A DNA stretch of 64,000 bases from Eubacteriales bacterium (lineage in GTDB: Bacteria > Bacillota > Clostridia > Oscillospirales > CAG-272): the NCBI GenBank assembly GCA_045632145.1, contig JAZQWB010000030.1, positions 48,333-112,332 of the forward strand, in the 5' to 3' direction. Both the position numbers and the translations under genes were made by a program. This document shows, piece after piece, positions 623 to 20,859 of the stretch. Every line of letters begins with the position of its first letter. Within the stretch, counting starts at the first letter, position 1. Below the pieces are notes generated by a model. The model was not told where the DNA came from. It searched no databases and saw nothing but the letters and a program-made list of their open reading frames with translations.

Positions 623-3600
623 ATGGCAAAAAAACCAAATTGTACTATAAGATTGCTCATTGTTGCGATAGCAATAATGCTTCTTATAGGCATCACATCG
701 GTTGTAACCTTTGCTGCGGATAATGATGCGTCAAGCAACGGAATTGTTTCAGTAAGTTTATCGCTTGATGACAGCATTGTCGTTAAAATTCGCACCACTG
801 CAACCAATGATGATGGAGCTTTCCTGAAGATCAGTCATAATGGAAAGGTCAGCAAGATTACCACTAATTACGGAGGAGTATTCTCATACGTTGACATTGC
901 TCCTCAGAATTTTGGTGATGAGCTTACCGCCGTATTGTATGCTAAAGACGGTAGTCAGATCGGTGCTCCTGTTACATTCAGTGTAAAGTCTTATTTGAAG
1001 GCACTTCTCGCTCTTGATTATGAGAGCAGCGGTTGTGATACCGAATTAGAGTACAGCGCAATGCGTGAGCTTGCGGTAAATCTGCTTAATTACGGTGCAG
1101 CAGCACAGACTTACACGGGTCATAAGGCTGACACGCTTGTGAATGCAGATCTCAGCGACGAGCTTAAGGCTCTTGCCGGCGCTCCTATATCCGTAACAAC
1201 CACTGACAAGGCTGTTAACGGTGATGCTTGGGTAGGCGCAGGTGTTCGTTTTGACTTCAGACTTGGTATTTACTATGTATTTGAGGCAGCATCGCTTGAC
1301 GGAGTTACTGCTACCATTAATGGTGTGAATGTTATTCCCGAGATTTACGATGCAAGTAAAAATCAGTATATCATCCGTTACAGCAGCTTTGGTGCTGATG
1401 AGATGAACAACGTTTTTACGGCGAAGCTTAATATTGGTGGAGCAGAGCAGACCTATTCTTATAGTATCAAGTCCTACGTTGCCGCAAAGGGTGGAGATGA
1501 TTCCGCACTTGCAAAGCTTGTTAATGCTGCTTATACATACGGATATGCGGCGGTTGCTTACGTTGGAGATATCATCTCTCTCGATCCTACCTTCGAAACT
1601 CCCGGTTACGTTGGTATTGATAGCAAGGGATATGATTTTACAGGCTCCAAGTATGAGGCTATGATTCTTCCTGCTCTTAATTATCAGGATTACACTATGA
1701 ATACAGTTGCTACCGCATCTGCTAATCCCAATGCTAAGGCAAGATTTACCTTAACTAAGGGTGCTTTCACTTACTCTGTTGACGTGACTGTTGATGACTG
1801 TATCAGAGTAAACGACAAGTATTATAGCATTTATGATTACGAGGCTCTTAACTCCGAGGGCATTGAGGTGACCTATAACAAGGATACAGGCTATACCTTC
1901 AGAGCAAAGACCGCACAGAATCTTACCTATCTTGCAGCTTACGGTAATGCGCTTACCGTAATTGGTGATATTACTATCACACGCGATACTGATGATTTGG
2001 TTATTGCTAATCAGCTTAATATCGGTACTGAAACCGAAAAGGCAACTGTAACCGTTAACAATGCCGCAGGTGCAACCCGTGCTATGAGATTTAATGACGG
2101 CGCAGGTCTTTATGTTGCGGAAAACAGCACACTGTCCATAACAAAGGGTGGTTCTTATTCTATCATTGGATATTCACAGGCTACATCTATCGTAGTTGAC
2201 GGTACTCTTAATACTCAGGGTATTATCAGACTTGAGAAGGGTGTTGTTCTTAACGAGAATTATGAGTATGGATTTGTTCCTGCACTCTTCGTTAGAAAGG
2301 GAACAGTAAATATTGACGGCGGTCAGGTTCTTTCCAACTCTATTCAGGTCGGTAGTGAGAGAGAGGGCTTTAAGGGTAATCTTATTATCACTCAGAATGC
2401 TGCAGGTGATAGAGCAGGATCCGGTGTTAGCGGTATTGTTTTAAATAACACTATCAGCTATGAAAACCGTACGTTAGCTCTTAGATACGTATTTGCAAAC
2501 GGTAAGGTATCTCTTACTGATAACACCACCGTTGGTCTTACAGCGATGGACGTGAGAACTAACAAGAGCGCTTATGTTGATTTTGGTTCCGGTATTGATG
2601 TTACCACCACGGGCGGCTACGTATATCTTGTAGGTACTTGGTCTGTTGCAGCAGATTACCGTTATGCTATTCATACCGATGCGAAGTTCACCGGTCCTCT
2701 TAGCGGTAATGCGTTGGTTTGTGTAGGTTATGCAACAAGCAATTACTTTATTAATTATACTGACGTAGAGCTTAAGGTTGACGGCGAAACCAAGCTTGTT
2801 CGTGTTGCTAGTTATACAACAGGATCTGCAAAGAGAAATATGGCAACCTCCTTGCTCACCGATAATGGTGATGGAACCAAGAGTATTGCTGATATTTCTG
2901 TTACAAGTGGCGAGTATCTTACCACAGCAGATGCACCTCTTGCCCTTGGCAACCAGGGCAACTTCAACAAGGCTGTATATAATGGAACCGAGATTTATTA
3001 TAAGGCTATTGGCAGTCATACTCATGCTACTGAAACCACAGTTGATAAGGTTGATTCTACCTGTAAGGTAGAGGGTCATGAGGCATACTATGTATGTGAG
3101 TGTGGCAAGCTCTTCTCTGATGAGGCTTGCACAAATGAAATCGCTGCTCCTGCTGTTATTCCTACAAAGGAACATACAGTGGTTGTTGATGCCGCTGTTG
3201 CTCCCACATGTAGTGAAAACGGACTTACTGAGGGTAAGCATTGTAGCGCTTGCGGTACTGTAACCGTACCTCAGAATATCGAGCTTGCACTTGGTCACCT
3301 TGATGCAAACTCCGACTTCGTTTGCGACCGTAACGGTTGTGGTGCTAAGCTTTGCACCAGTCATAATGAGGTTGTTGATGCCGGCAAGGACGCGACCTGT
3401 ACTGAGGACGGTCTTACCGAGGGCAAGCATTGTTCTATCTGCGGCGAGATCACTGTAGCGCAGACCGTTATCCCTTCTCCCGGTCATAACGAGGTTACAG
3501 ATGCGGCTGTTGCTCCTACCTGTACATCCACAGGTCTTACTGAGGGGAAGCATTGTTACAGATGTAATGAGGTGTTCACAGAGCAAACGGTTATCGATGC

Positions 3601-5224
3601 TATTGCTCACAAGAATGCAACATATGTAGAGCTTGTTGATGCAAGCTTCGAGAGCGAGGGCGTTGTTGCTCACTATGCATGTCCTGATTGCGGTAAGTAC
3701 TATCTTGACGTTGAGCTTACAAAGGAGATTTCTTCTCCCATACTTCCTAAGCTTGATACTGTTAAGTATACTACCGCAACAACAAGACCTGCTTTTGCTA
3801 CAACTCTCACACTTGATACCATATTCACTCTTGTCAGTGACGAGATCGAGTATTCTGTCCCCGTTCAGGTTGACAGCATGCTTGTTGTTGATAGAGGCGA
3901 GGGTGAAATCGTTGTAACAAAGTATGACTACCAGAAGCTCAACACCGATATTGTAACCGTAACTTACGATGAAGTAACCGGTTATACATACTCTGTAGCT
4001 GAAGGCCAGACCGAAACCGGTATTACAGGTATTGGTATCCGTTCTGCGGGTAGAGATCTTACTATCACCGGTTCTGTTGAGATTATTGGTGCTGCAAGAT
4101 TTGGTACTAATACAAATCTTATAATCGGTACAGACGATAAGCCCGCTCACGTTAAGTTTGAAGTTACCACAGCAGATACAAACGGTCTTGGTATTTGGGA
4201 CGGTGCTGACCTGACAGTAAACAAGGGAAGTACTCTTGATGTAAAGAATGTTAGTGACAACACTATTTACATTAATGCAAAAGCATCGATAATTACTATT
4301 GCAGGAACATTGACCTCAAACAGCACTATTAATTCCAACGGTTGTACATTTAATGTAACATCTACTGGTTCGGTTGTTACTAAGCAATCCTTCTATAATA
4401 ACGGAGATACAACTCTTAATGTTGACGGTTACTTTGAGGCAACCTACCTTTACATTAAGTCTAATGGTTATGTTACTGTTGGTGGTGAATTGGTTCTTAA
4501 AGCCGATGGAAAGACAACTACAATTGCCGGAGCTGCAGCAGCAAACTCTGACTATGAATATGGCTTCAGACCTCGCCTTCTCGTTTTGGGTACTTTAACT
4601 GCAAACGGCGTTATCAACTGTAACTCCATTCAGGTTGGTAGTGAAAAGGATAATAGATCCGGAGTAATGAATCTTAAACACAGCGGAAATAACGTTGTTG
4701 TTATTAACAAATCTGATGTTAGAATTGTTTTTGCTAAGGGCGAAGTAAATCTTCTCAATACTGCAACCGGAAAGTGTGCTTTTGATGTTGGTAACCAGAA
4801 TGCCACTACCAATGTAGTGATTAAGAGCGGAATGACATTCAATACAAACGTAAATTACGGAAGTATCATAGGTGAATGGAAGAACGGAACCTATAGCGTT
4901 TATATTGAGGACGGTGTAACCTTTAACGGCTCAGTTAATAACTTTACCGCTATGTCAAGCAACACTAAGACAATGTACTTCTTCAGAACAGAAACCGTAA
5001 CTATTGATGGAGTTGAAAAGGCGGTTACTCTTGCATGCTCCAATCCTTCTACAGGAACAGCGGGTTACTATTCTTACGATGCTATCAATAGTATGAACCC
5101 TGTAGTGGCAGGTGCAAATTACGTTTCTACATCTGAAACCGCAACCTACGGTGATCTCGGTAGCTTCATCAAGGCTACCTACACCGATGAGAGCGGTACT
5201 GTTCACACAATTTATTATCAGTAA
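623..5224 (+). CDS. 1,533-aa secreted repeat protein of unknown family (two paralogous large modules flanking His/Cys repeats)
   Basis: GGAGG sits 8 nt upstream of the ATG. Signal peptide ...LLIGITSVVTFAADN. Internal duplication (YEYGF[VR]P...NSIQVGSE occurs twice). No anchor motif recognised. Confidence 0.9.
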   Translation: MAKKPNCTIRLLIVAIAIMLLIGITSVVTFAADNDASSNGIVSVSLSLDDSIVVKIRTTATNDDGAFLKISHNGKVSKITTNYGGVFSYVDIAPQNFGDELTAVLYAKDGSQIGAPVTFSVKSYLKALLALDYESSGCDTELEYSAMRELAVNLLNYGAAAQTYTGHKADTLVNADLSDELKALAGAPISVTTTDKAVNGDAWVGAGVRFDFRLGIYYVFEAASLDGVTATINGVNVIPEIYDASKNQYIIRYSSFGADEMNNVFTAKLNIGGAEQTYSYSIKSYVAAKGGDDSALAKLVNAAYTYGYAAVAYVGDIISLDPTFETPGYVGIDSKGYDFTGSKYEAMILPALNYQDYTMNTVATASANPNAKARFTLTKGAFTYSVDVTVDDCIRVNDKYYSIYDYEALNSEGIEVTYNKDTGYTFRAKTAQNLTYLAAYGNALTVIGDITITRDTDDLVIANQLNIGTETEKATVTVNNAAGATRAMRFNDGAGLYVAENSTLSITKGGSYSIIGYSQATSIVVDGTLNTQGIIRLEKGVVLNENYEYGFVPALFVRKGTVNIDGGQVLSNSIQVGSEREGFKGNLIITQNAAGDRAGSGVSGIVLNNTISYENRTLALRYVFANGKVSLTDNTTVGLTAMDVRTNKSAYVDFGSGIDVTTTGGYVYLVGTWSVAADYRYAIHTDAKFTGPLSGNALVCVGYATSNYFINYTDVELKVDGETKLVRVASYTTGSAKRNMATSLLTDNGDGTKSIADISVTSGEYLTTADAPLALGNQGNFNKAVYNGTEIYYKAIGSHTHATETTVDKVDSTCKVEGHEAYYVCECGKLFSDEACTNEIAAPAVIPTKEHTVVVDAAVAPTCSENGLTEGKHCSACGTVTVPQNIELALGHLDANSDFVCDRNGCGAKLCTSHNEVVDAGKDATCTEDGLTEGKHCSICGEITVAQTVIPSPGHNEVTDAAVAPTCTSTGLTEGKHCYRCNEVFTEQTVIDAIAHKNATYVELVDASFESEGVVAHYACPDCGKYYLDVELTKEISSPILPKLDTVKYTTATTRPAFATTLTLDTIFTLVSDEIEYSVPVQVDSMLVVDRGEGEIVVTKYDYQKLNTDIVTVTYDEVTGYTYSVAEGQTETGITGIGIRSAGRDLTITGSVEIIGAARFGTNTNLIIGTDDKPAHVKFEVTTADTNGLGIWDGADLTVNKGSTLDVKNVSDNTIYINAKASIITIAGTLTSNSTINSNGCTFNVTSTGSVVTKQSFYNNGDTTLNVDGYFEATYLYIKSNGYVTVGGELVLKADGKTTTIAGAAAANSDYEYGFRPRLLVLGTLTANGVINCNSIQVGSEKDNRSGVMNLKHSGNNVVVINKSDVRIVFAKGEVNLLNTATGKCAFDVGNQNATTNVVIKSGMTFNTNVNYGSIIGEWKNGTYSVYIEDGVTFNGSVNNFTAMSSNTKTMYFFRTETVTIDGVEKAVTLACSNPSTGTAGYYSYDAINSMNPVVAGANYVSTSETATYGDLGSFIKATYTDESGTVHTIYYQ
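3010..3700 (+). repeat. five divergent in-frame His/Cys repeats (H-x6-12-C-x8-9-HC-x2-CG, e.g. HTVVVDAAVAPTCSENGLTEGKHCSACG)
   Basis: Repeated peptide motif read from the translation of 623-5224. The DNA copies are diverged. Confidence 0.75.
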
Positions 5225-5242: not shown

Positions 5243-6628
5243 ATGAATAGAATAACTAAAGTTTTATCAGCGATTGTTATAATTTTAATACTCGTCGCAT
5301 TTGCGGGTATGATCTACCTTAATGGTGGTTTTGATTTTAGTCACACTTGTGAGAGCGTCTGCTCCGAGTGCGGCAAGTGTACCGACGTTTCTTGCACCGA
5401 AACTGCTTGCGCAGAAAAGTGCGAGGGACATCAGGTTACACCTCCTGCACACATCTGTGAGAGCGTTTGCTCCGAGTGTGGTAAGTGCACCGATGCAGCT
5501 TGTACTGAATCTGCTTGTGCAAACAAGTGTGAGGGTCATCAGGTAACACCTCCTGCACACACCTGTGAGAGCGTTTGCTCCGAATGTGGTAAATGCACCG
5601 ATGCCGCTTGTACTGAATCTGCTTGCGCTAGCAAGTGTCAGGGACACGGTCCTCATGACTGTGAGAGCATTTGTAACGATTGTCAGAAATGTACCGATCT
5701 TGCTTGTACACATAGTGAGTGTGCAAACAAGTGCGATGGACATAATACCAATAATTCGGGTTATGCTTATCAGACATATCAGCTTAATCTTATGTCCTTC
5801 AACATTCGTACTTTTACTAACAATGATACAGGTAATACTCACTGGGATAAGCGTAAGGATGCACTTGTAAGCTTCCTCAACAATTCCGAGGCTGATATCA
5901 TTGGTATGCAGGAAGTTACAAAGACACAGTTCGAGTATATTCAGGCAAATCTTGCCGGCAATTACACTGCTCTTAATTTCCCCAGACAGGGTGGCTCAAA
6001 TCCCGAGGGTCTTTCATTCATTTATGATTCCACTAAGTTTGAGTTTGTTTCCTCTGAAAAGTACTGGCTTTCGGAGACTCCTGAGGAGCAGTCTTACGGT
6101 TGGGGTGAATCCTATTATCGTATTGCGGTAGTTCTTGTTCTCAGACACATAGAGACAGGCGAGATCGTTAAGTCTATAAACACCCACGGTCCTCTCCTTG
6201 ACGAGGCTAACGTAAAGGCATACGAGCTTATTATGGAAAGATCTGTAAACGAGGGTGATCCCTTCACATTCCTTTGTGGTGACTTCAATGCTACACCCGG
6301 TAATATCGGATACGTTGCTGTTGCTGAGGAGCTTCAGGACTGCCGCGTAAGCGCAGATTATAGCTCTGCTCGTGATCATGTAACCTTTACAGGTTGGGGT
6401 AGCTATGTTGACGGTGAAACACCTGATCATATCATCGACTTCTGCTTTGTATCCAAGGGCGATAATGTTGACGTTAAGTCCTACGAGGTTCGCACCGACA
6501 GATGGGGCGACGGAAATTATTATTCCGACCACTATGCAGTACAGACTGTTGTAGAAATCACCTACAAGAGTACCATTCCTTCGCAGGGAGGCAACGGCTT
6601 CGACGGTGAAATCGATACAGCAAAGTAG
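5243..6628 (+). CDS. membrane-anchored endonuclease/exonuclease/phosphatase (EEP) family protein with N-terminal Cys-rich repeats
   Basis: AAAGGAG RBS. N-terminal TM helix VLSAIVIILILVAFAGMIYL. EEP motifs GMQEV, CGDFNATP and YSDHYAV. Four CESVCSECGKCTD..C....C...C.GH repeats. Confidence 0.9.
   Translation: MNRITKVLSAIVIILILVAFAGMIYLNGGFDFSHTCESVCSECGKCTDVSCTETACAEKCEGHQVTPPAHICESVCSECGKCTDAACTESACANKCEGHQVTPPAHTCESVCSECGKCTDAACTESACASKCQGHGPHDCESICNDCQKCTDLACTHSECANKCDGHNTNNSGYAYQTYQLNLMSFNIRTFTNNDTGNTHWDKRKDALVSFLNNSEADIIGMQEVTKTQFEYIQANLAGNYTALNFPRQGGSNPEGLSFIYDSTKFEFVSSEKYWLSETPEEQSYGWGESYYRIAVVLVLRHIETGEIVKSINTHGPLLDEANVKAYELIMERSVNEGDPFTFLCGDFNATPGNIGYVAVAEELQDCRVSADYSSARDHVTFTGWGSYVDGETPDHIIDFCFVSKGDNVDVKSYEVRTDRWGDGNYYSDHYAVQTVVEITYKSTIPSQGGNGFDGEIDTAK
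5342..5743 (+). repeat. tandem in-frame 108-bp (36-codon) repeat: 3 close copies plus 1 divergent shorter copy
   Basis: Copies start at 5342, 5450, 5558 and 5654. Copies 2 and 3 are near-identical at the DNA level. Confidence 0.9.
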
Positions 6629-12504: not shown

Positions 12505-12535
12505 GGGACTGTCGCAAAAGCGACAGTCCCATTTT
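12505..12535. terminator. bidirectional terminator between convergent genes
   Basis: gggactgtcgc-aaaa-gcgacagtccc followed by atttt; it lies between stop codons on opposite strands. Confidence 0.8.
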
Positions 12536-12552: not shown

Positions 12553-14814
12553 TTAATGATAGAACTCGAAGGTTACAGAAAGACCGCCCTGGGTAAGAGT
12601 AATGGTTTCAGCCTGATTAAATGCAGCGAGGATAGCCGCGTGGCTTGCATCAGTACCAATTACCTTCATATTAAGGTCCATAAAGGTAGAACCATTATAG
12701 AAAATGCTGTAAACATTACCATCTGCACCTGTAACAGTGAAGAAGGGGGGGATCGATTTAAAAAGATCAACATCAGGCTTCTGATTATCGGGATCACTCA
12801 TAGCACCTTCAGTTATAGCCTTGATGGATGCCCAGTTAAGGTTATCTGCAGTCTGGAATCTGCTGAAGGTGGTGTCATCGATTGTAAGAGAGCCCTGAGC
12901 AGCGATACCGGTGATAACGCTTGTTGCATCGTTACCGGTTGCCATAACTGCACCGATGATATTCATCTTGCCGTTGGCATCAACAAAGCTACCAACACCA
13001 AGGCCATACTGTAAGCCCTGGCTGAGAGCCTTGATACCACCAACAAGGGTGTCTGCGCCTACTGCCTTGAACCAGATCTCGTTACCTGCTACGTGAGTCT
13101 CGGTAACGGTGTTGTTAAGGTTAACAACGGGGTGCTGGCCAGCGATATCAAGCTTGCTCTGAGCGATGATAACGGGACCACCGCAGCCGTAAATGTAGGA
13201 GTCGGTGAAGTTAACCTCGCACTTACCCCATGCAAAGATCGCATTCTGGTAGGAGTCGAAGCACTTTACGTTGGTTGCATCAAGAGTTGCATCGTAGTCT
13301 ACGAAATAGGTGATGAATCCGGAGTTGCCGATAACGTTATCAACGGTTGTCTGTGTGTAGTGGCTGGACTTCAAGAAGATGAGACCGCCTGCAGAAGCAA
13401 GCTTTTCAGTTGCATCAACGTAGTTGTCTCTTGCCGCGTTACCGATGAACTGAAGGTTGTTGATGTCAACAACAGCAACGTCCTCACCACAAGGATAATA
13501 TGTGTTTGTGGAATAGTCGTAGTAGATCGAAATAGTAGCTACTCTGATAAGAGCCGCGTTAGAGAAGTCGGCGCCGTAATCCTTGTTAGCATCTGCACCA
13601 AAAACAGCAGGGGAAGCAACAAGGGGGAATTCTCTGGTATCGATTGCAAAGAAGTTACCCTCGATTCTAAGGTCCTCAGAGCCTACGCGAGTGTAAACAA
13701 TGCTACCGTCAATGAAGAACTTGGTTCCTGCGGGAATAGTCTTTGTTTCGCCGGTCTCAGAGTTGGTGTAAACGGTTTCCTTTTCGGAGGTGTAGAAGAA
13801 GGACTCGGGAACATCATCAGCAGTAAGCTTGATATCAGCATGGAGAACAATACCTGTAACCGTAACATTGGTAATGCCGTGGGAGTACTTAAAGCCGTCC
13901 CATGCGGGATTATTGTTATCAATAACAGCAAGCTGCCAAGCCTCGTAAATGTTATAAGCCTTGATAATCTCTGCCTCGAATACAACAGCATTGAAATCGC
14001 TTGCATTGAGGTAGTAATCAGCAGAGGGAAGAACGCTGATCTTAACCTTGCAGTTTTCAGCAGCTGCGCTGAAGGAATACTCACCCTTGAAGGCATCAAC
14101 AGTTACGATGAGAGTCTCACCGTCATAGAAGGAAAGGAAATTGTTTTCGCCCTCAACAGAGGTAAGCTCAACATATTCGCCATCCTTTTCGATGGAGATC
14201 ATAACGTCGGTATAGAAGCTAGAGCGCTCTGCGGGAACACCGTTTTCATCAAGAATTGCAAAGAGAGGAGAAAGCTTGAACGCGTTTTGGTTACCAATAA
14301 CATAGGTCTTGTCGCCAACTGCAAACTGACCCTCGAAGCCAGGCTGACCGTAAGAAAGAGAGCCAGCAGACTCATTAGCGGAATTAAAAGCGGTAAGGTT
14401 AGTGGGATTCTCGAACTGAACAACAATCTGAGGTGTGGTAATATCAGCACCGTCTTCTGTAACAGTAATCTCAACCTCTGCCTTCTGCTCAACATTAAGG
14501 TTGGGATCAAGGAAGGATACGGTTACCTTCTTTTTACCAACGGTATCAGTAATACCGTCCTCGTAATCGATAGTAAGCTCATCGTAGGTGTAAACCTTGT
14601 TAAGAGATGCGTCGGAATACTTAGCTGTAGCCTTGATTCCGGTGAAATCGATCTCTTCGCCAACAATGTAGTTGGTTTTGATGGTGCTGCGGTCAACGGT
14701 AAATGACTCGAGCTTCAAGCTTCCGCCGAAAATGTCGCAGGAAGCGAAGGACAGAACGAGTGCAAACACAACAACAGCTGCAAAGAGCTTAGAAAGGGTG
14801 TGAACTGTTTTCAT
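12553..14814 (-). CDS. 753-aa putative lipoprotein with N-terminal Ig-like (Big_3-like) domain; remainder unknown
   Basis: Signal peptide plus lipobox ...LVLSFASC. Y.VGEEIDFTGIKATAKYSD...GKKKVTVSF resembles bacterial Ig-like domains. Last gene of the operon. Confidence 0.85.
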   Translation of the reverse strand: MKTVHTLSKLFAAVVVFALVLSFASCDIFGGSLKLESFTVDRSTIKTNYIVGEEIDFTGIKATAKYSDASLNKVYTYDELTIDYEDGITDTVGKKKVTVSFLDPNLNVEQKAEVEITVTEDGADITTPQIVVQFENPTNLTAFNSANESAGSLSYGQPGFEGQFAVGDKTYVIGNQNAFKLSPLFAILDENGVPAERSSFYTDVMISIEKDGEYVELTSVEGENNFLSFYDGETLIVTVDAFKGEYSFSAAAENCKVKISVLPSADYYLNASDFNAVVFEAEIIKAYNIYEAWQLAVIDNNNPAWDGFKYSHGITNVTVTGIVLHADIKLTADDVPESFFYTSEKETVYTNSETGETKTIPAGTKFFIDGSIVYTRVGSEDLRIEGNFFAIDTREFPLVASPAVFGADANKDYGADFSNAALIRVATISIYYDYSTNTYYPCGEDVAVVDINNLQFIGNAARDNYVDATEKLASAGGLIFLKSSHYTQTTVDNVIGNSGFITYFVDYDATLDATNVKCFDSYQNAIFAWGKCEVNFTDSYIYGCGGPVIIAQSKLDIAGQHPVVNLNNTVTETHVAGNEIWFKAVGADTLVGGIKALSQGLQYGLGVGSFVDANGKMNIIGAVMATGNDATSVITGIAAQGSLTIDDTTFSRFQTADNLNWASIKAITEGAMSDPDNQKPDVDLFKSIPPFFTVTGADGNVYSIFYNGSTFMDLNMKVIGTDASHAAILAAFNQAETITLTQGGLSVTFEFYH

Positions 14815-14855
14815 TTTAGTGCCTCCTAAAATATATTTTATTGTTTTAAGATATA

Positions 14856-15353
14856 TTATTTCTGGATAAGTCTACCCATAATTGATATCTGGTTTTTAAC
14901 TAACGAACCGTCTGTGGATTCAATAGTTATAGTGTAAATTACATTGGGACGAAGGAATATAAAGGTTTTTGACAGCTCGTCAAATACAACCGAGCCTGCC
15001 ATAGAATCCTTGTCGTAAACAAACTTTACACTTGTATTATCCGCATTGTGAGGAAGTACCTCATAATTGATTTGGACAGCATTGGGGTTGGAAATAATAC
15101 TTAAATCATCTGTTGTATAGCTTGATCCGTCGGGAGCAGGGATAAAATCGAAAATATACAGAGGAATTCCGTGAAGCGTAGAGGATGATTCTATAGTAAC
15201 GGGATTCTCATTTTGTACAGTTATTGATGTAACCTGAATTCCGTTTACATAAGTAACACCATCAAAAACCTGATCCTTAAGACCAAAGAAGTTTACCACC
15301 GCAATCGAAGCAACGTAAACTGCAAGGATAATTATAACTAATGTTTTTTTCAT
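14856..15353 (-). CDS. 165-aa membrane-anchored extracytoplasmic protein (Ig/Big_2-like fold suspected)
   Basis: N-terminal TM helix KKTLVIIILAVYVASIAVVNFF; ...VLPHNADNTSVKF...ITIESTDG pattern. Confidence 0.75.
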   Translation of the reverse strand: MKKTLVIIILAVYVASIAVVNFFGLKDQVFDGVTYVNGIQVTSITVQNENPVTIESSSTLHGIPLYIFDFIPAPDGSSYTTDDLSIISNPNAVQINYEVLPHNADNTSVKFVYDKDSMAGSVVFDELSKTFIFLRPNVIYTITIESTDGSLVKNQISIMGRLIQK

Positions 15354-15355
15354 TC

Positions 15356-17053
15356 TTATTTCTCCTTGTAGAATGCTTTGATTTTGGACAGATAAGTGTA
15401 TACCTTGAATGCTGCAATTGCCATCGAGATAATACCAAGCTTAATCCATGTGGTGGTATCACCACGGGAAGAAAGGAAAAGCGCAACAACAAACACAACA
15501 ACCGAAATAACCAAGGCGGAGATTCCTGACGATGATTCGTTAGGATTATTTGTCTGCTCGTTAAAGGTAGCATACTGGCTGTACTGAGGATTCATAATAT
15601 CGCTCTCGGCGCTTATAAACAAGTGCGCGATGTATAACGAATAAATAGTTATAGCGATCATTATAGCATCCAAAGGATTCATCGATGATTCGATAGCAAA
15701 GATGTTAACCGAAAGTATTGCACCAACCAGAGATATAGCGGCAGGGAATACCAACTTCGAGATAAGCAGAGTAACGTAGGGCGCGGGCTGAACCTTATTA
15801 AGATAAGAGCTGGACCCGTCGCGGCTGTAAACCGAGGCTATGTCAATATTCGTCATCAGCATAATGAGCATGATAATAAGAACGTTGAAACATACGGTCA
15901 TCTGTGTACCAAGGAACTTGGTATCCATTGCAGAATAAAGCTTGTTAAGCAAATATATTGCCATAGGCATAATTACAACAAGTAAGCCGCCAAGCTTGAT
16001 GAAGGCGTTGGATCGGAGATCGACAGTAACTTCCTTCTTCAGTGCAGACAAGAAGGGAGAGAGCTTGATGTTTTTCTTTTCCCTTATTGCATTATTCTTT
16101 TTAAACTCAAAGGGAGTTGAGGCCATACGGCAGAACAGAGGTTTTGAGCAAACAAAGCAAAGGACAAGAAGAACAATGCCTATTCCAATAATAGAAAGCA
16201 ACGAAATAAGGGTTGCCGAATGGAAAATAACGCTTGTAAGTCCGATGGTTTTTCCAACAATCAGTTCGGTAAAGATGTAGATAGGAGCAAAGTTAGTAGT
16301 AAACTGCTTGAGGAATGCCTGAATATCCCAGTATGTGTCTCCCCAGGATTCGAGGAAATTGATATTCTCGGGGATAAGACCGATTAAATACCAAAGAAGG
16401 AGAATTCCCGCAATTGCAGCGGCAGAATATAAGATATACTGAAGAATCTTTACTCTGTCGAGGAATATTTTAGCAAACATAGCAGGGATAGAAAGCAATG
16501 CTGCGATAAGAACGGGAATAGTCGAAATGAGGATAAACATAAGTATCAACCAAGGGTAGTAAATAGCGGAATAGCCCTTTACAATACCGTAGGCGATAAA
16601 CATAGGGATAGTGAACATAAAGCTTCTGCGAAGCTCGTAAACATAGTATGCCACAAGCTTGGAGAAGAAAATCAACGAGGGGGTTGCAGGGAAGGTTAAG
16701 AGGACTGTGTTATCCTTTGAGAAATAAAGAGATTTCATTAGTCCGATAGTATCGGTTACCAGTGAAATAAGAAGCATAATTCCAAATATCAGTGAAATTA
16801 CCGATACAGGAATGTCGTGGACCAGTGAAAATAGGCCCAAAAGCTTTATGAAATAGAACAGAATTGAAATTGCAGTAGTAATTACAGCAAATTCAACTAA
16901 GAGCCAAATTATCTTAAAGATAATCTGCCTTGGCGATTTTGTAAAGCTGAAATCAAGTTTTTCCCTGAGCTGCATCTTAACAAGAGTTTTTAAGGCTCTG
17001 AAGTTTTCGCTGAAGGTTTCCTTGAAATATCCTTTATTTGCGGTTTTTGTCAT
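15356..17053 (-). CDS. polytopic ABC exporter permease (putative ABC-exporter family)
   Basis: About 12 hydrophobic spans. The start overlaps the upstream ATPase stop (ATGA, 17050-17053). Confidence 0.8.
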   Translation of the reverse strand: MTKTANKGYFKETFSENFRALKTLVKMQLREKLDFSFTKSPRQIIFKIIWLLVEFAVITTAISILFYFIKLLGLFSLVHDIPVSVISLIFGIMLLISLVTDTIGLMKSLYFSKDNTVLLTFPATPSLIFFSKLVAYYVYELRRSFMFTIPMFIAYGIVKGYSAIYYPWLILMFILISTIPVLIAALLSIPAMFAKIFLDRVKILQYILYSAAAIAGILLLWYLIGLIPENINFLESWGDTYWDIQAFLKQFTTNFAPIYIFTELIVGKTIGLTSVIFHSATLISLLSIIGIGIVLLVLCFVCSKPLFCRMASTPFEFKKNNAIREKKNIKLSPFLSALKKEVTVDLRSNAFIKLGGLLVVIMPMAIYLLNKLYSAMDTKFLGTQMTVCFNVLIIMLIMLMTNIDIASVYSRDGSSSYLNKVQPAPYVTLLISKLVFPAAISLVGAILSVNIFAIESSMNPLDAIMIAITIYSLYIAHLFISAESDIMNPQYSQYATFNEQTNNPNESSSGISALVISVVVFVVALFLSSRGDTTTWIKLGIISMAIAAFKVYTYLSKIKAFYKEK

Positions 17054-19326
17054 GCCATCTCTCCTGCTTGAACAGATTCCATGGCTTCTGCCTCCTTAAC
17101 AGTAACGGGAGGCTGGGTGTTTCCGTCTATCATGCTCATATAGAACTTTTCAAGAGGAATGCCACTTTCTTTGATTTCTGCTACAGTTTTAGTGCAGAGA
17201 ATCTGACCCTTGCGGATAATAGCAATTCTGTCACAAATATTTTCAACAACGTCGATGATATGGCTGGAGAAGAATACGAGGTTACCGCGAGCCGCGTGCT
17301 CCTTCATACACTCCTTAACCTGGAAGATAGACTCGGGGTCAAGACCTGTAAGAGGTTCGTCAAGAATCCAAATCTTTGGATTATGGACAAGGGCAGACAT
17401 AATGGTAATCTTCTGCTTCATACCGTGAGAGTATGTTTTCATAGGGTTATCAATGGCTGCTTCAAGACGGAATCTTTCTACGTATTCGGAGATTCTGGCA
17501 TCTCTGTCTTCCTTAGAAACGTTGTAAAGGTCTGCGATATAGTTGATATACTCTCTGCCCGAGAGGTTTTCGTAAAGAGCATAGTGGTCGGGAACAAAGC
17601 CGATCTGCATCTTTGCTTCAACAGACTGCTTGTTAACGTCAAAGCCGGAGACCTCGATTTCACCCGAGGTAATGGTCTGAATACCAACTATGGTCTTGAT
17701 GATTGTGGATTTACCTGCACCGTTGGGACCAAGGAAGCCGAAAATCTGTCCGCCATCGATCTCGAGGTTTGCTTTATATACAGCGTAAACGTCGCTGGTT
17801 GAATATCTCTTTGAGAAATCGCGAAGGATAAGCTTGCCTTCGTTTTGAGGATTTAAGGGTTCCTGCATGCTTCTACCTGCAAGCTGTGCCTCAAGAGCGA
17901 GTCTGTCGGCTTTAATCTTGCGGTTCCTTTCAGTAATAATATCGTTAATATCTGTAATTTCAAATACCTGCTCGTATACAAACCACATTGCAAGCGAAAG
18001 CAATACGTAAGCAATAAAATACAAAAGCTGATATACGGGGTAGAATATGAATGTGTATTCTTTGAAGGGAATTTTGATTACAATGTCACGAAGATCTTCT
18101 GCCCATTCACCAAGTTTTGAAGCAACAAAATCTGTATTAATGAAGAAGAAGTCGGTGGCGTGACCTATGCCTGTGCAAATAGCATTGGCGATAAGGACTA
18201 TCAAATAGTATCCAAAGAACCCGACGAGCGAATAAACAAACTGCTTGAATTTAGGTCTTTCGAATATTCCAAGGCTCATCATTAACAGGGGGAGAAGCAT
18301 AGCAATGTAATGAGTATTCCAGAATTCAACCGAAATGCTGGACAACCAATGTGTGCTATCGCTTAAGTTAGGGAGTATCATTGCAATCAACGCACCGAAT
18401 ACGTTGATAAAAATAGTGAAGTAATAGAGCTTGTCCAACTTGAATATGAGAATAATAGGAAGAATGAACAAAGCAAGATTGCAAAGGTGGAGAGGCCACT
18501 GATAAATTTTTCCAAAGGTAGAGAAATCATATCTATAGGAGAAGTTTATCATGGTTGCCATACTGATATAGATAAGTGCGTATCTTTTCTGATCGTACTC
18601 ACATCCTTTAAAGAGGAAGTGAAGAGCAAGACCAAAAAGGGGAATAACGTAAATGAAAAGTCTGTGAGCTAAAGTAAAGTCTTTAACAACAAAATCATAG
18701 GGATGACCAAAGATAGCTTGAGGCGCCCAGCTAGGCATTGCAACAACAAGCATGCCGAGGAAAATAGCCACTGACATAAGATGCTGTTTAACGGAAAGTT
18801 TTATCTGCTTAAGGTCGAAGAGGCTAAACAGGGAAAGAGCAAGACCTACACCAATTTCAAGTGCAAACGCAAGAAGTCTGTAGTGGAATTCCTCAAATCC
18901 ATCACCATTAAGAGCGCGGTTCAGGGTAGGAATGAAAATAAGAGATAAAGCGTAAACCGCTGTGCCACCGAACTTTACCACAGGACCCACACAAGGAACG
19001 TGCTTTTCAAAGAAGGGGAAGGTAACCTCTGCGAGCTGTACAGCAAAAATAAGCCACAAAAGAACTATCGACAAGAATGTTTCGGGAATACCGTGAACTC
19101 CGAAGGGGGAGAACTGGTTCAGACCAATAGTTGACTGAATCTTAGGCACTCCACCAAGGAAACGAACAAAGAAAAGTGCACCGTATATTAATGCTACAAA
19201 CTGCTTGTTGGTCAATTTAGAACCAAAAATGCTTTTATCCTTACAGAAAAACAAAAAACTAAAGACAGCAAGGCAAGCAATTATTGCCGAGCCGTAATAC
19301 ATAAATGACAAGTTGATTTCCTCCAA
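17050..19326 (-). CDS. fusion protein: ~480-aa polytopic membrane domain (YwaF/TIGR02206-like, WPLHLCN) + C-terminal ABC ATPase
   Basis: GPNGAGKS, YSHGMKQK, IWILDEP, SSH. The start is ambiguous: TTG 19326, TTG 19311 (GGAGG 8 nt upstream) or ATG 19302. Confidence 0.88.
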   Translation of the reverse strand: MEEINLSFMYYGSAIIACLAVFSFLFFCKDKSIFGSKLTNKQFVALIYGALFFVRFLGGVPKIQSTIGLNQFSPFGVHGIPETFLSIVLLWLIFAVQLAEVTFPFFEKHVPCVGPVVKFGGTAVYALSLIFIPTLNRALNGDGFEEFHYRLLAFALEIGVGLALSLFSLFDLKQIKLSVKQHLMSVAIFLGMLVVAMPSWAPQAIFGHPYDFVVKDFTLAHRLFIYVIPLFGLALHFLFKGCEYDQKRYALIYISMATMINFSYRYDFSTFGKIYQWPLHLCNLALFILPIILIFKLDKLYYFTIFINVFGALIAMILPNLSDSTHWLSSISVEFWNTHYIAMLLPLLMMSLGIFERPKFKQFVYSLVGFFGYYLIVLIANAICTGIGHATDFFFINTDFVASKLGEWAEDLRDIVIKIPFKEYTFIFYPVYQLLYFIAYVLLSLAMWFVYEQVFEITDINDIITERNRKIKADRLALEAQLAGRSMQEPLNPQNEGKLILRDFSKRYSTSDVYAVYKANLEIDGGQIFGFLGPNGAGKSTIIKTIVGIQTITSGEIEVSGFDVNKQSVEAKMQIGFVPDHYALYENLSGREYINYIADLYNVSKEDRDARISEYVERFRLEAAIDNPMKTYSHGMKQKITIMSALVHNPKIWILDEPLTGLDPESIFQVKECMKEHAARGNLVFFSSHIIDVVENICDRIAIIRKGQILCTKTVAEIKESGIPLEKFYMSMIDGNTQPPVTVKEAEAMESVQAGEMA

Positions 19327-19374: not shown

Positions 19375-19403
19375 ATTTTATCACAAATAATTACAAAAGT
19401 AAA
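19375..19403 (-). promoter_or_regulatory. candidate sigma-A promoter of the ABC operon (TTTACT-17-TGaTAAAAT)
   Basis: The minus strand reads tttact tttgtaattatttgtga taaaat. Confidence 0.4.
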
Positions 19404-19512: not shown

Positions 19513-19533
19513 AGGCAAGAAAATAAAATAATG

Positions 19534-19613
19534 CTTATCAAGAGTGGCGGAGGGACTGGCCCTATGAAACCCGGCAACCTGTTTTTTCAAGGTGCTAAAT
19601 CCCGATAGATGAG
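19534..19613 (+). promoter_or_regulatory. SAM-I (S-box) riboswitch aptamer, unusually short (no P4 hairpin evident)
   Basis: CTTATCAAGAGTGGCGGAGGGACTGGCCCTATGAAACCCGGCAACC...AAGGTGCTAAATCC..AGATGAG matches the S-box core; located upstream of metK. Confidence 0.9.
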
Positions 19614-19623
19614 TTATGCTCTA

Positions 19624-19662
19624 AAGCTCGGGAGGAATGCCATCTTCCGAGCTTTTGATTTT
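19624..19662 (+). terminator. riboswitch expression-platform terminator
   Basis: aagctcgggag-gaatgccat-cttccgagctt followed by ttgatttt, 16 nt before the metK ATG. Confidence 0.8.
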
Positions 19663-19677: not shown

Positions 19678-20859
19678 ATGAAAAAGATTCTCTTTACTTC
19701 CGAGTCCGTAACTGAAGGACATCCCGACAAAATTTGTGACAAAATTTCCGATGCTATTCTTGACGAGATGCTTGCACAGGACCCTATGTCCCGTGTTGCT
19801 TGTGAGACCTTTGCTACTACCGGTATTATTACCGTAATGGGCGAAATTACCACACAGGCTCGCGTTGATATCCAGGATATCGTACGTAAGACCGTTGCTG
19901 AGATTGGCTATGACAGAGCAAAGTATGGCTTTGATGCTACTACCTGCGCGGTGCTCAGCTCTATTCACGAGCAGAGTGCTGACATCGCTCTTGGCGTTGA
20001 CAAGTGCCTTGAGGCTAAGGAGGGTGAGCTTAACGATGAGCTTGATACAGGTGCAGGTGACCAGGGTCTTATGTTTGGTTACGCGTGTGACGAGACTCCC
20101 GAGCTAATGCCTCTCCCCATTTCTCTTGCTCACAAGCTTGCGAAGCGTCTTACCGAGGTAAGAAAGAACGGTACTCTCAACTATCTCCGTCCCGACGGAA
20201 AGACTCAGGTTACTGTTGAATACGTTGACGGTGTTCCTACCAGAATTGATACTATCGTAGTTTCCTCTCAGCACTCTGCAGAGATTGATTCTGCTACCAT
20301 CCGTAAGGATATTATTGACAAGGTTATTCTTCCTATTATTCCTTCCGAGCTTCTTGACGGTAAGGTTAATATCTACGTTAACCCCACGGGCAGATTTGTA
20401 ATCGGTGGTCCTCAGGGTGACACAGGTCTTACCGGTAGAAAGATCATTGTAGATACATACGGTGGATATTCTCGTCACGGTGGCGGTGCATTCTCCGGTA
20501 AAGACCCCACAAAGGTTGACCGCAGTGCATCCTATGCCGCTAGATACGTTGCAAAGAATATCGTTAAGGCTGGTCTTGCAAAAAAGTGCGAGGTGCAGAT
20601 TGCATATGCTATCGGTATTGCAAAGCCCGTATCCGTTATGATCGATACCTTTGGTACCGCAACCGTTGATGAGGAGAAGATTGTTAATGCTGTAAACCAG
20701 CTTGTTGACCTTCGTCCTGCTGCAATTATCAAGAAGTTTGAGCTTCGCAAGCCCATCTACAAGCAGCTTGCTGCATATGGCCATATGGGTAGAGAAGAGC
20801 TTGGTGTAAAGTGGGAAGAGTGCGATATTGCAGATCAGCTCAAGGCTCTTTGCAACTAA
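19678..20859 (+). CDS. metK: S-adenosylmethionine synthase
   Basis: [21 protein letters not shown]..., [38 protein letters not shown]. The ORF-track start at 19609 lies inside the riboswitch. Confidence 0.96.

Follow-up and report, generated by a model that had tools for sequence, protein, structure and literature searches.

We analysed a stretch of 64,000 nucleotides (nt) from an Eubacteriales bacterium of the Clostridia (contig JAZQWB010000030.1, positions 48,333 to 112,332), in the following called the window; all coordinates refer to it. The subject of this report is a group of four consecutive genes on its minus strand, which appear to combine an ATP-binding cassette (ABC) transporter of unusual architecture with two proteins of the cell surface. 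Gene 1 (17050-19311) codes for a fusion of a membrane domain with an ABC ATPase, gene 2 (15356-17053) for a permease of 565 amino acids (aa), gene 3 (14856-15353) for a bitopic protein of 165 aa, and gene 4 (12553-14814) for a lipoprotein of 753 aa. The open reading frames (ORFs) are tightly packed: genes 1 and 2 overlap in an ATGA (17050-17053), genes 2 and 3 are separated by 2 nt (15354-15355), and genes 3 and 4 by 41 nt (14815-14855). These coordinates and junctions, which had been proposed in a first-pass annotation of the same DNA, were verified. Each of the downstream starts is preceded by a Shine-Dalgarno sequence (AGGAGA, AGGAGA, and AGGAGG for genes 2, 3, and 4). For gene 1 a product of 758 aa had been reported; the corresponding mechanical ORF (17050-19326) is present, but translation most likely begins at the TTG at 19311, since a GGAGG motif is located 8 nt 5' of this codon and the identical database protein (P0121) comprises 753 aa. 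The homologues likewise have 753 aa, and residue numbers given below follow this form.

An intrinsic-terminator hairpin with an 11-bp stem (8 G-C pairs) and a 4-nt loop is found on both strands at 12505-12530, between gene 4 and the convergent gene of phosphofructokinase (PFK). It agrees with the bidirectional terminator of the first-pass annotation, although the T-run, which is good on the plus strand, is weaker on the minus strand. The analysis confirmed that genes 1 to 4 constitute one translationally coupled unit ending at this strong hairpin terminator. The promoter is less clear. A consensus scan found the proposed sigma-70-type signal with a TG-extended -10 element (TTTACT-17-TAAAAT, minus strand, 19375-19403), which matches 9 of 12 positions and lies in an AT-rich intergenic region shared with the divergent S-adenosylmethionine (SAM) riboswitch and metK. 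However, 22 matches of this quality occur in the region versus 16 ± 4 in shuffled sequences, i.e. they are not enriched; the promoter is a plausible, unverified candidate. On the other side of the intergenic region, the SAM-I riboswitch (Rfam RF00162, 66 bits) occupies 19532-19655 of the plus strand upstream of metK and includes a terminator-like hairpin (19623-19655). The listed metK start (ATG 19609) falls inside the riboswitch; translation probably begins at the methionine of MKKILFTSE near 19678.

The membrane part of gene 1 determines how the unit is to be read. Its residues 213-446 (17974-18675) form a domain of seven transmembrane (TM) helices which matches the Pfam family TMEM164 (PF14808) with 59.7 bits (cut-off 25, E=3.7e-16). 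The match extends over residues 212-438 and profile positions 2-212 of 217, and all 10 of 10 distant relatives tested matched the same family; a sequence search of the PDB with the membrane domain gave no match. TMEM164 and the bacterial YwaF proteins belong to the ATGY superfamily (AIG1/TMEM164/GPC1/YwaF/YpjA), whose members have a six-TM core in which TM2 carries a nucleophile that varies and TM4 a histidine that is invariant; TMEM164 itself is a cysteine-dependent transacylase (Reed et al.). Serine and threonine have been described as alternative nucleophiles of the superfamily. In gene 1, the corresponding positions are taken by the motif PLHLC (residues 273-277, 18481-18495), which ends in the candidate nucleophile Cys277, and by the candidate catalytic residue His334 (18310-18312). 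We determined their conservation in a family alignment of 34 sequences with identities down to 21%. Pro273 is invariant (34/34). Cys277 is present in 32 of the 34 sequences, the remaining two carrying serine and threonine, and His334 in 31; two of its three exceptions are the sequences without Cys277.

The same 34 diverse sequences were used to derive a topology from family-averaged hydropathy and charge bias, which gave 13 TM helices for gene 1. The loop charges alternate over all of them without exception (seven loops are net positive, six neutral or negative), and the C-terminal end of the last helix must be inside, because the ATPase that follows is cytoplasmic. The six-TM core corresponds to helices h-m, and the domain shows the arrangement characteristic of the ATGY superfamily, as Cys277 is located in helix i (core TM2) and His334 in helix k (core TM4). 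According to this charge-based topology, His216, the PLHLC motif, and His334 are all placed at extracytoplasmic helix ends, and we infer that the Cys277/His334 pair faces the outside of the cell. Judged by the PF14808 match and the position of this pair, the membrane part is an enzyme-like domain of the TMEM164/YwaF family within the ATGY superfamily; acyl transfer or ester hydrolysis of the ATGY type is its predicted activity. The first-pass annotation had seen no enzyme gene at the locus and had regarded the membrane part as a plain transporter domain. Neither statement can be upheld: the domain belongs to a superfamily of acyltransferases and hydrolases and has a Cys-His pair of YwaF/TMEM164 type, and therefore the functional reading of the whole unit changes.

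The domain is preceded by an N-terminal extension (residues 1-212, 18676-19311), for which six TM helices (a-f) were deduced from hydropathy and charge bias. It has no Pfam match even at E<=10 and is found in both fused and stand-alone members of the family. An internal duplication was considered and rejected, as alignment of the extension with the TMEM164 core by hhalign showed no similarity.

The C-terminal part of gene 1 (residues 447-753, 17053-17973) comprises a conserved cytoplasmic linker helix and an ABC nucleotide-binding domain (NBD), which matches ABC_tran (PF00005) with E=9e-28. All functional motifs are present, i.e. Walker A (GPNGAGKST, 17704-17730), the Q-loop, the ABC signature (YSHGMKQK, 17410-17433), Walker B with the catalytic glutamate (IWILDEP, 17353-17373), and the H-loop (SSHII, 17254-17268), and they are invariant in 19 homologues; by these motifs, the ATPase is predicted to be catalytically intact and of the DrrA class. 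The best NCBIfam model is the DrrA subfamily (207.7 bits, cut-off 312), followed by GldA (197.2 versus 402.6), galliderm_ABC (146 versus 310), and NodI (139 versus 549); NosF scored 116 bits (E=1.6e-32). No equivalog passed its cut-off in the NCBIfam scan of genes 1 to 4. Judged by these scores, the ATPase is ABC-2/DrrA-like but a member of no curated equivalog. When the ATPase (17053-17886) was compared with the PDB by phmmer, the eukaryotic lipid transporters ABCA3, 4, 1, and 7 ranked first with about 180-210 bits. This kinship is an artefact, as phmmer sums the two NBDs of each chain: individually, the ABCA NBDs score about 100-106 bits, compared with 139.6 bits for the bacterial single-domain match 1vpl. 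For this reason we no longer took the ABCA ranking to indicate a lipid substrate.

Gene 2 is the cognate permease of this ATPase. It has about 12 hydrophobic segments, corresponding to some 12 TM helices, and matches the Pfam family PF16949 (ABC_tran_2) with 31.1 bits (cut-off 25.7) over profile positions 20-433 of 542. PF16949 is its only Pfam match; there is no FtsX, MacB, or ABC2_membrane domain, and no NCBIfam model matched. Two positively charged cytoplasmic motifs (LVKMQLKE and MASTPFEFKK) are invariant. As for gene 1, an internal duplication was tested with hhalign, and none was found between the two halves. Gene 3 consists of a single TM helix (residues 5-23) followed by an ectodomain of about 140 residues. 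The residues of the helix are nearly invariant across relatives of 31-67% identity. The first-pass annotation had called the protein TM-anchored and immunoglobulin (Ig)-like. The anchor was found as proposed, whereas the fold of the ectodomain has to be judged from orthologues: the window protein itself has no Pfam match, but its orthologues in two distant loci (L033 and L034) show weak Big_2 matches, so that a Big_2-like Ig fold is probable.

Gene 4 starts with a signal peptide (14737-14814) that was read directly from the sequence; it has a positive n-region, a hydrophobic core, and a lipobox (MKTVHTLSKLFAAVVVFALVLSFAS, followed by the cysteine) ending in Cys26, the predicted lipidated residue. 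Cys26 is invariant in 40 sequences, namely 38 homologues and two more at 25% identity, and the protein is in all likelihood a bacterial lipoprotein processed by Lgt and Lsp, its lipidation being predicted from the lipobox. Residues 34-120 (14455-14715) form a beta-sandwich in the AlphaFold2 model and match the Ig-like Big_3 family weakly (PF07523, E=0.0025-0.008). The domain is repeated in longer homologues, the one of locus L032 having seven Big_3 repeats. A lipoprotein with the lipobox FASC and an Ig-like N-terminal domain had been expected, and both parts of this description hold.

For the remaining 600 residues or so, which had been left unassigned, no family can be named even now; structure prediction, however, resolves them into a beta-sandwich and a beta-helix. 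The mean predicted local distance difference test (pLDDT) value is 88.1 for the whole of gene 4, and 88.6, with a predicted template modelling (pTM) score of 0.88, for residues 270-753. Residues 129-285 (13960-14430), which have no family match, constitute a second sandwich domain consisting of strands only (pLDDT about 90). Residues 286-753 (12553-13959, stop included) are modelled as a right-handed parallel beta-helix of periodic three-strand coils with a C-terminal alpha/beta cap. A Foldseek search with the whole model gave scattered Ig and beta-helix matches (E>2e-3). When the C-terminal model was compared with the PDB, all of the top 50 matches were beta-helix lyases, hydrolases, epimerases, tailspikes, or autotransporters; the best of them reached E=0.025 at a TM-score of 0.28, and none had E<1e-3. 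Among the fold matches in a viral library, most of the named ones were beta-helix proteins, none of them significant. At the sequence level, the PDB yielded nothing beyond the Ig-domain match, a Pectate_lyase_5 match remained below threshold (E=0.009), and no polysaccharide lyase or glycoside hydrolase family of Pfam or NCBIfam matched above threshold. We conclude from the model that the C-terminal part probably belongs to the right-handed beta-helices by fold class, the fold matches being weak and a close solved relative lacking; gene 4 would then carry its beta-helix as a head on a stalk of Ig and beta-sandwich domains. To this extent the beta-helix suspected earlier was a correct guess. Lys482, Lys517, and Glu579 are the only invariant polar residues besides an asparagine ladder, and they are kept in homologues of 25% identity. 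Together with the ladder, these residues may point to a groove in the beta-helix used for binding or catalysis.

In order to see whether the four genes belong together, their neighbourhoods were compared in 32 related loci (L001-L032), 30 of which are long enough to show the gene order, two being cut by a contig end. The order gene 1, gene 2, gene 3, gene 4 on one strand is kept in 30 of 30 cases, which answers the question of synteny in favour of the unit proposed in the first-pass annotation. The ATPase is 86-92% identical to that of the window in 31 close loci and 66% in the more distant L032. The corresponding values are 62-76% for the permease, 50-64% for the membrane part of gene 1, 47-67% for gene 3, and 41-56% for the lipoprotein. 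Compared with the fused membrane domain, the ATPase and the linker helix thus appear to be under unusually strong constraint. At least three different flanking contexts were found: RuvB-MetK and PFK-Hsp33, as in the window, Metallophos and ceramidase-like genes, and others sharing neither. In one lineage (loci L001-L006, L010, and others), the downstream flank of the unit holds the gene of a large Metallophos protein and one on the other strand that codes for a protein of 433 aa with a faint alkaline-ceramidase match; next to these are BcrAD_BadFG, SIS, and two DegT aminotransferase genes, a context that does not exist in the window. Because the flanks change between lineages, the sugar genes are not usable as evidence, and flanking genes were dropped as functional clues altogether. 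As the gene order is kept while the flanks differ, and as the setting is one of housekeeping genes, the block behaves as a unit of its own within a housekeeping region of the chromosome. The GC content is flat around the unit and the surrounding genes scanned are housekeeping genes, which ruled out a mobile element or island. An anti-phage defence system was likewise rejected: PADLOC gave generic ATPase-domain matches only for gene 1 and none for genes 2 to 4. Elsewhere in the window, an ORF of 1533 aa (623-5224, plus strand) has no Pfam match at E<=1e-5 and is directly followed by a gene for a protein of the endonuclease/exonuclease/phosphatase family (5243-6628, plus strand). Homologues of the lipoprotein form at least 287 clusters, all of them unannotated or "hypothetical"; they stem from gut and rumen metagenomes and from metagenome-assembled genomes of Clostridia, Eubacteriales, and Oscillospiraceae. 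All carriers are uncultured organisms.

Which components form the core of the system becomes evident from its distant members. When the membrane part of gene 1 was searched exhaustively against 1.84 billion representative proteins, only 224 clusters reached E<=1e-3. These fall into two size classes, proteins of about 720-820 aa fused to an ATPase and proteins of about 450-500 aa without it. We inspected the gene context of members with 21-38% identity. In L033, the fusion is followed by a permease, a protein of 141 aa, and a lipoprotein of 731 aa homologous to gene 4. L034 (8001-14485) is split: a YwaF-like membrane protein of 478 aa, an ATPase of 255 aa, a permease, a protein of 135 aa, and a lipoprotein of 664 aa, which the gene 4 profile did not detect, are encoded by separate genes, and IS21-type genes (IstB, DnaB_2) are located immediately upstream. 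As the parts occur here as adjacent genes, gene 1 of the window can be understood as a fusion of functionally linked neighbours. L035 and L036 consist of fusion, permease, a protein of 168 aa, and a lipoprotein of 1056 aa with Listeria-Bacteroides repeats and a weak pectate-lyase-like adhesive domain. In L038 and L039, fusion and permease are accompanied by one TM-anchored Big_2 protein of 775 aa; a search with this distant branch (L038 type) found 7 proteins. L043 (8001-12187) has only the fusion and the permease, and in L040 (8001-9392) and L042 (119-1534) membrane proteins of 463-471 aa, which consist of the N-terminal extension and the YwaF domain, stand alone with no ABC genes nearby. The GC content of the loci carrying these last forms (L043, L040, L042) ranges from 27% to 52%. 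The deepest conserved core, as judged from these architectures, is the YwaF-like protein together with the ATPase and the permease. Surface proteins tethered to the membrane occur often, though not always, as accessories with varying passenger domains, and the lipoprotein is the accessory of a sub-family, since L043 lacks surface proteins and stand-alone membrane domains lack ABC genes. The first-pass annotation had suggested a dedicated module for surface assembly or export. The coupled four-gene unit agrees with this proposal, but dedicated assembly or export of the lipoprotein is only one of several possibilities.

The locus encodes one conserved envelope machine, for which we infer a translocator combined with a transferase as the most economical reading. 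Our preferred explanation, which we put forward tentatively, is that the ABC core delivers a lipid or a lipid-linked donor outward, that the fused Cys-His domain transfers or removes an acyl group, and that the surface proteins are acceptors or processing partners. In such a machine, a single gene 2 permease would carry two copies of gene 1, dimerised via the ATPase domains, and ATP hydrolysis would bring a lipid, or an acyl donor or substrate linked to a lipid, to the outer leaflet. At this face, the Cys-His domain would form an acyl-enzyme intermediate, whose acyl group would be passed to an extracellular acceptor or be removed. Gene 3 would act as a membrane adaptor, docking against the transporter within the membrane and holding gene 4, and gene 4 would be the acceptor, or an enzyme or binding module for the surface polymer being modified. 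A precedent for acyl transfer of this kind outside the cell is LhaT (YpjA) of Bacillus subtilis, a lipoprotein N-acetyltransferase of the same superfamily, which works at the outer face of the membrane with a lipid-borne acetyl donor. A narrower version, an ATP-powered machine for extracellular acylation in which the ABC half supplies or gates the acyl donor and the transferase acylates the co-encoded surface protein or its lipid anchor, strikes us as improbable. If it were true, the locus would be a self-contained lipidation system for proteins or the cell wall which carries its own client. It would, moreover, supply the donor-flipping step that is missing from extracellular ATGY-type acylation pathways such as the one of LhaT, for which the passage of the donor across the membrane was left unexplained.

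Several observations weigh against a translocator coupled to a transferase. For gene 2, neither a single-sequence nor a profile search of the PDB found a solved relative, and the literature search revealed no characterised member of PF16949. The topologies of genes 1 and 3 and the helices of gene 2 rest on hydropathy and charge bias. One fused system (L043) does without both surface proteins, the stand-alone membrane domains (L040, L042) indicate that an ABC partner is not generally needed, and homology of the large surface protein does not extend to all distant modules. Furthermore, the ATGY superfamily includes hydrolases, not only transferases, and the cavity of human TMEM164 was described as having portals to the bilayer and the cytosol (Reed et al.). 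The substrate lipid and the acceptor, finally, are putative.

We considered four other explanations. The transporter might move no substrate at all and instead transmit mechanical force: movements of genes 1 and 2 would switch or reposition the beta-helix lipoprotein via gene 3, as NosFY acts on the beta-helix protein NosD or FtsEX on wall hydrolases, and the YwaF-like domain would be structural or regulatory. The ATPase is of the same broad class as NosF and has a predicted beta-helix protein as extracytoplasmic partner, and the residue-by-residue conservation of the gene 3 helix suggests a contact within the membrane. A large surface protein lies directly downstream in four of five distant fused or split modules, and in L038 the large surface protein itself includes a TM anchor like that of gene 3. 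However, a purely mechanical role is disfavoured by the Cys/His pair, whose conservation down to 21% identity it leaves unexplained. Moreover, L043 retains the ATPase fusion and the permease in the absence of a surface partner, the large protein lacks homology in some modules, and the Pfam scans detected no NosD/CASH, NosY, or FtsX domain; we regard this explanation as rather unlikely. The Cys-His domain keeps a chemical role if it remodels the lipid anchor of gene 4 by N-acylation, transacylation, or deacylation, with the ABC part handling acyl chains or extracting the protein for release. LhaT, as the only characterised bacterial ATGY enzyme, does modify N-termini of lipoproteins outside the cell, and the last gene codes for a lipoprotein with an invariant lipobox cysteine in every close relative and in L032-L035, while the passengers differ. 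On the other hand, the surface protein of L038 is TM-anchored and no lipoprotein, the residues following the lipobox cysteine are not conserved between distant modules, and gene 1 belongs to the TMEM164/YwaF family rather than to DUF1405, the family of LhaT. Any model in which the lipoprotein is essential is disfavoured because L043 and stand-alone homologues exist, and tailoring of the anchor is decidedly unlikely.

A further explanation is the export of a lipid-linked surface glycopolymer in the manner of TarGH or Wzm-Wzt, during which the fused domain would O-acylate the polymer; the lipoprotein with its beta-helix would be an enzyme that trims or epimerises it. The DrrA/ABC-2 class of the ATPase is in line with such a role, as are the lyase, hydrolase, epimerase, or tailspike folds found for gene 4 and the persistence of Lys482, Lys517, and Glu579 even at 25% identity. 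The fold matches are weak, though (E>=0.025, TM-score<=0.28), no catalytic motif of a CAZy family was identified, and the permease does not belong to a recognisable ABC2_membrane family. The sugar-nucleotide genes (SIS, two DegT) that are nearby in many relatives are absent from the neighbourhood in the window and from other contexts, and a linked glycosyltransferase is missing; this explanation, too, is unlikely. An ordinary exporter of the DrrAB/Bcr type, conferring resistance to drugs or antimicrobial peptides and having the surface proteins as unrelated neighbours, would account for the curated models that the ATPase matches best, DrrA of daunorubicin resistance and the ATPases of lantibiotic protection, none of which reaches its cut-off. 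It conflicts with the translational coupling and the strict four-gene synteny across changing flanks, and there is no adjacent regulator or two-component system. In addition, exporters of this type have nothing that corresponds to the fused enzyme-like domain, and the ATPase is under very high purifying selection at a core-genome location. We consider a resistance exporter very improbable.

The significance of the unit depends on which explanation applies. A YwaF-like domain fused or adjacent to an ABC ATPase and a permease provides a testable link between ATP hydrolysis and acyl chemistry at the outer leaflet. It would add a new ABC architecture, with a 13-TM enzyme-like domain on the ATPase subunit and a separate permease, and would offer a first functional handle on the PF16949 permeases and on a large, abundant, and entirely unannotated family of surface lipoproteins from gut and rumen Clostridia. 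If the unit is a plain exporter, the value lies mainly in better annotation. The ATGY superfamily was recognised only in 2022-2023, and LhaT is its sole characterised bacterial enzyme. A literature search covering YwaF, PF14808, TIGR02206, PF09529, PF16949, and ATGY turned up only a preprint on TMEM164, the paper on LhaT, and a methods list; it revealed no known function for any bacterial YwaF/TMEM164 protein, and the full texts contained nothing on YwaF-ABC fusions, on the function of PF16949, or on this lipoprotein family.

A comparison with known systems helps to place the unit. The ABC systems of type VII (MacB, LolCDE, FtsEX, BceAB) resemble it in that an ABC ATPase serves extracytoplasmic partners, some of which are lipoproteins; however, gene 2 has no FtsX or MacB_PCD domain, the ATPase is of another class, and the host presumably belongs to a monoderm lineage of Clostridia. 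NosDFY(L) likewise has an ABC ATPase of the same broad class and a lipoprotein, and its extracytoplasmic right-handed beta-helix partner would find a parallel in the fold predicted for gene 4. In contrast to NosDFY, our unit has no NosD/CASH or NosY-type domain and no nosZ context, the neighbours scanned being housekeeping genes, and NosD is not among the top 50 PDB fold matches of gene 4. Moreover, the predicted beta-helix protein is here itself a lipoprotein, an acyltransferase-like domain is added, and the permease is a single chain of 12 TM helices. Thus, as judged from its domains, the unit is neither a MacB/LolCDE/FtsEX/BceAB system, because an FtsX domain is missing, nor a NosDFY system, because NosD and NosY domains and the nos context are missing. 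The first-pass annotation had named a bacitracin- or lantibiotic-type or LolCDE-like system as an example of a match that would speak against its reading; such a match was not found, since domains of the FtsX or MacB type are missing and none of the NCBIfam equivalogs passed its cut-off.

Among the ABC-2 and type V systems (DrrAB, TarGH, Wzm-Wzt, GldAFG, ABCA), the likeness lies in the ATPase, which is nearest to the DrrA and GldA models, is related to the ABCA NBDs, and has a signature of the SGGMKQK type. It stays below every curated cut-off, though, the permease belongs to PF16949 and not to ABC2_membrane, and an enzyme-like domain of 13 TM helices is joined to the ATPase. A functional analogy is offered by MprF and by the peptidase-containing ABC exporters (PCAT), in which an enzyme that works on the cargo is combined with a translocator in one polypeptide or complex. 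There, the enzyme acts from the cytoplasm before the cargo is transported, whereas the candidate site described here faces outward and would act after transport; neither system is related to the unit in sequence. LhaT is of the same superfamily as the domain of gene 1 and acts at the outer face, with a lipid-borne acyl donor and a lipoprotein substrate. In contrast to gene 1, it is a six-TM stand-alone enzyme with no known ABC partner, and it belongs to the Pfam family DUF1405, whereas a Pfam scan of gene 1 at E<=0.1 gives only TMEM164 and ATPase families. Closest are the TMEM164/YwaF proteins: PF14808 is matched above threshold, the cysteine is on core TM2 and the histidine on core TM4, and the nucleophile varies while the histidine is kept. 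Gene 1 differs from them by its additional six-TM N-terminal extension, and the domain is here mostly fused or adjacent to an ABC ATPase and a permease. In summary, this comparison suggests that the unit is an ABC transporter to which an acyltransferase-like domain facing outward has been fused and which has its own dedicated partners at the cell surface.

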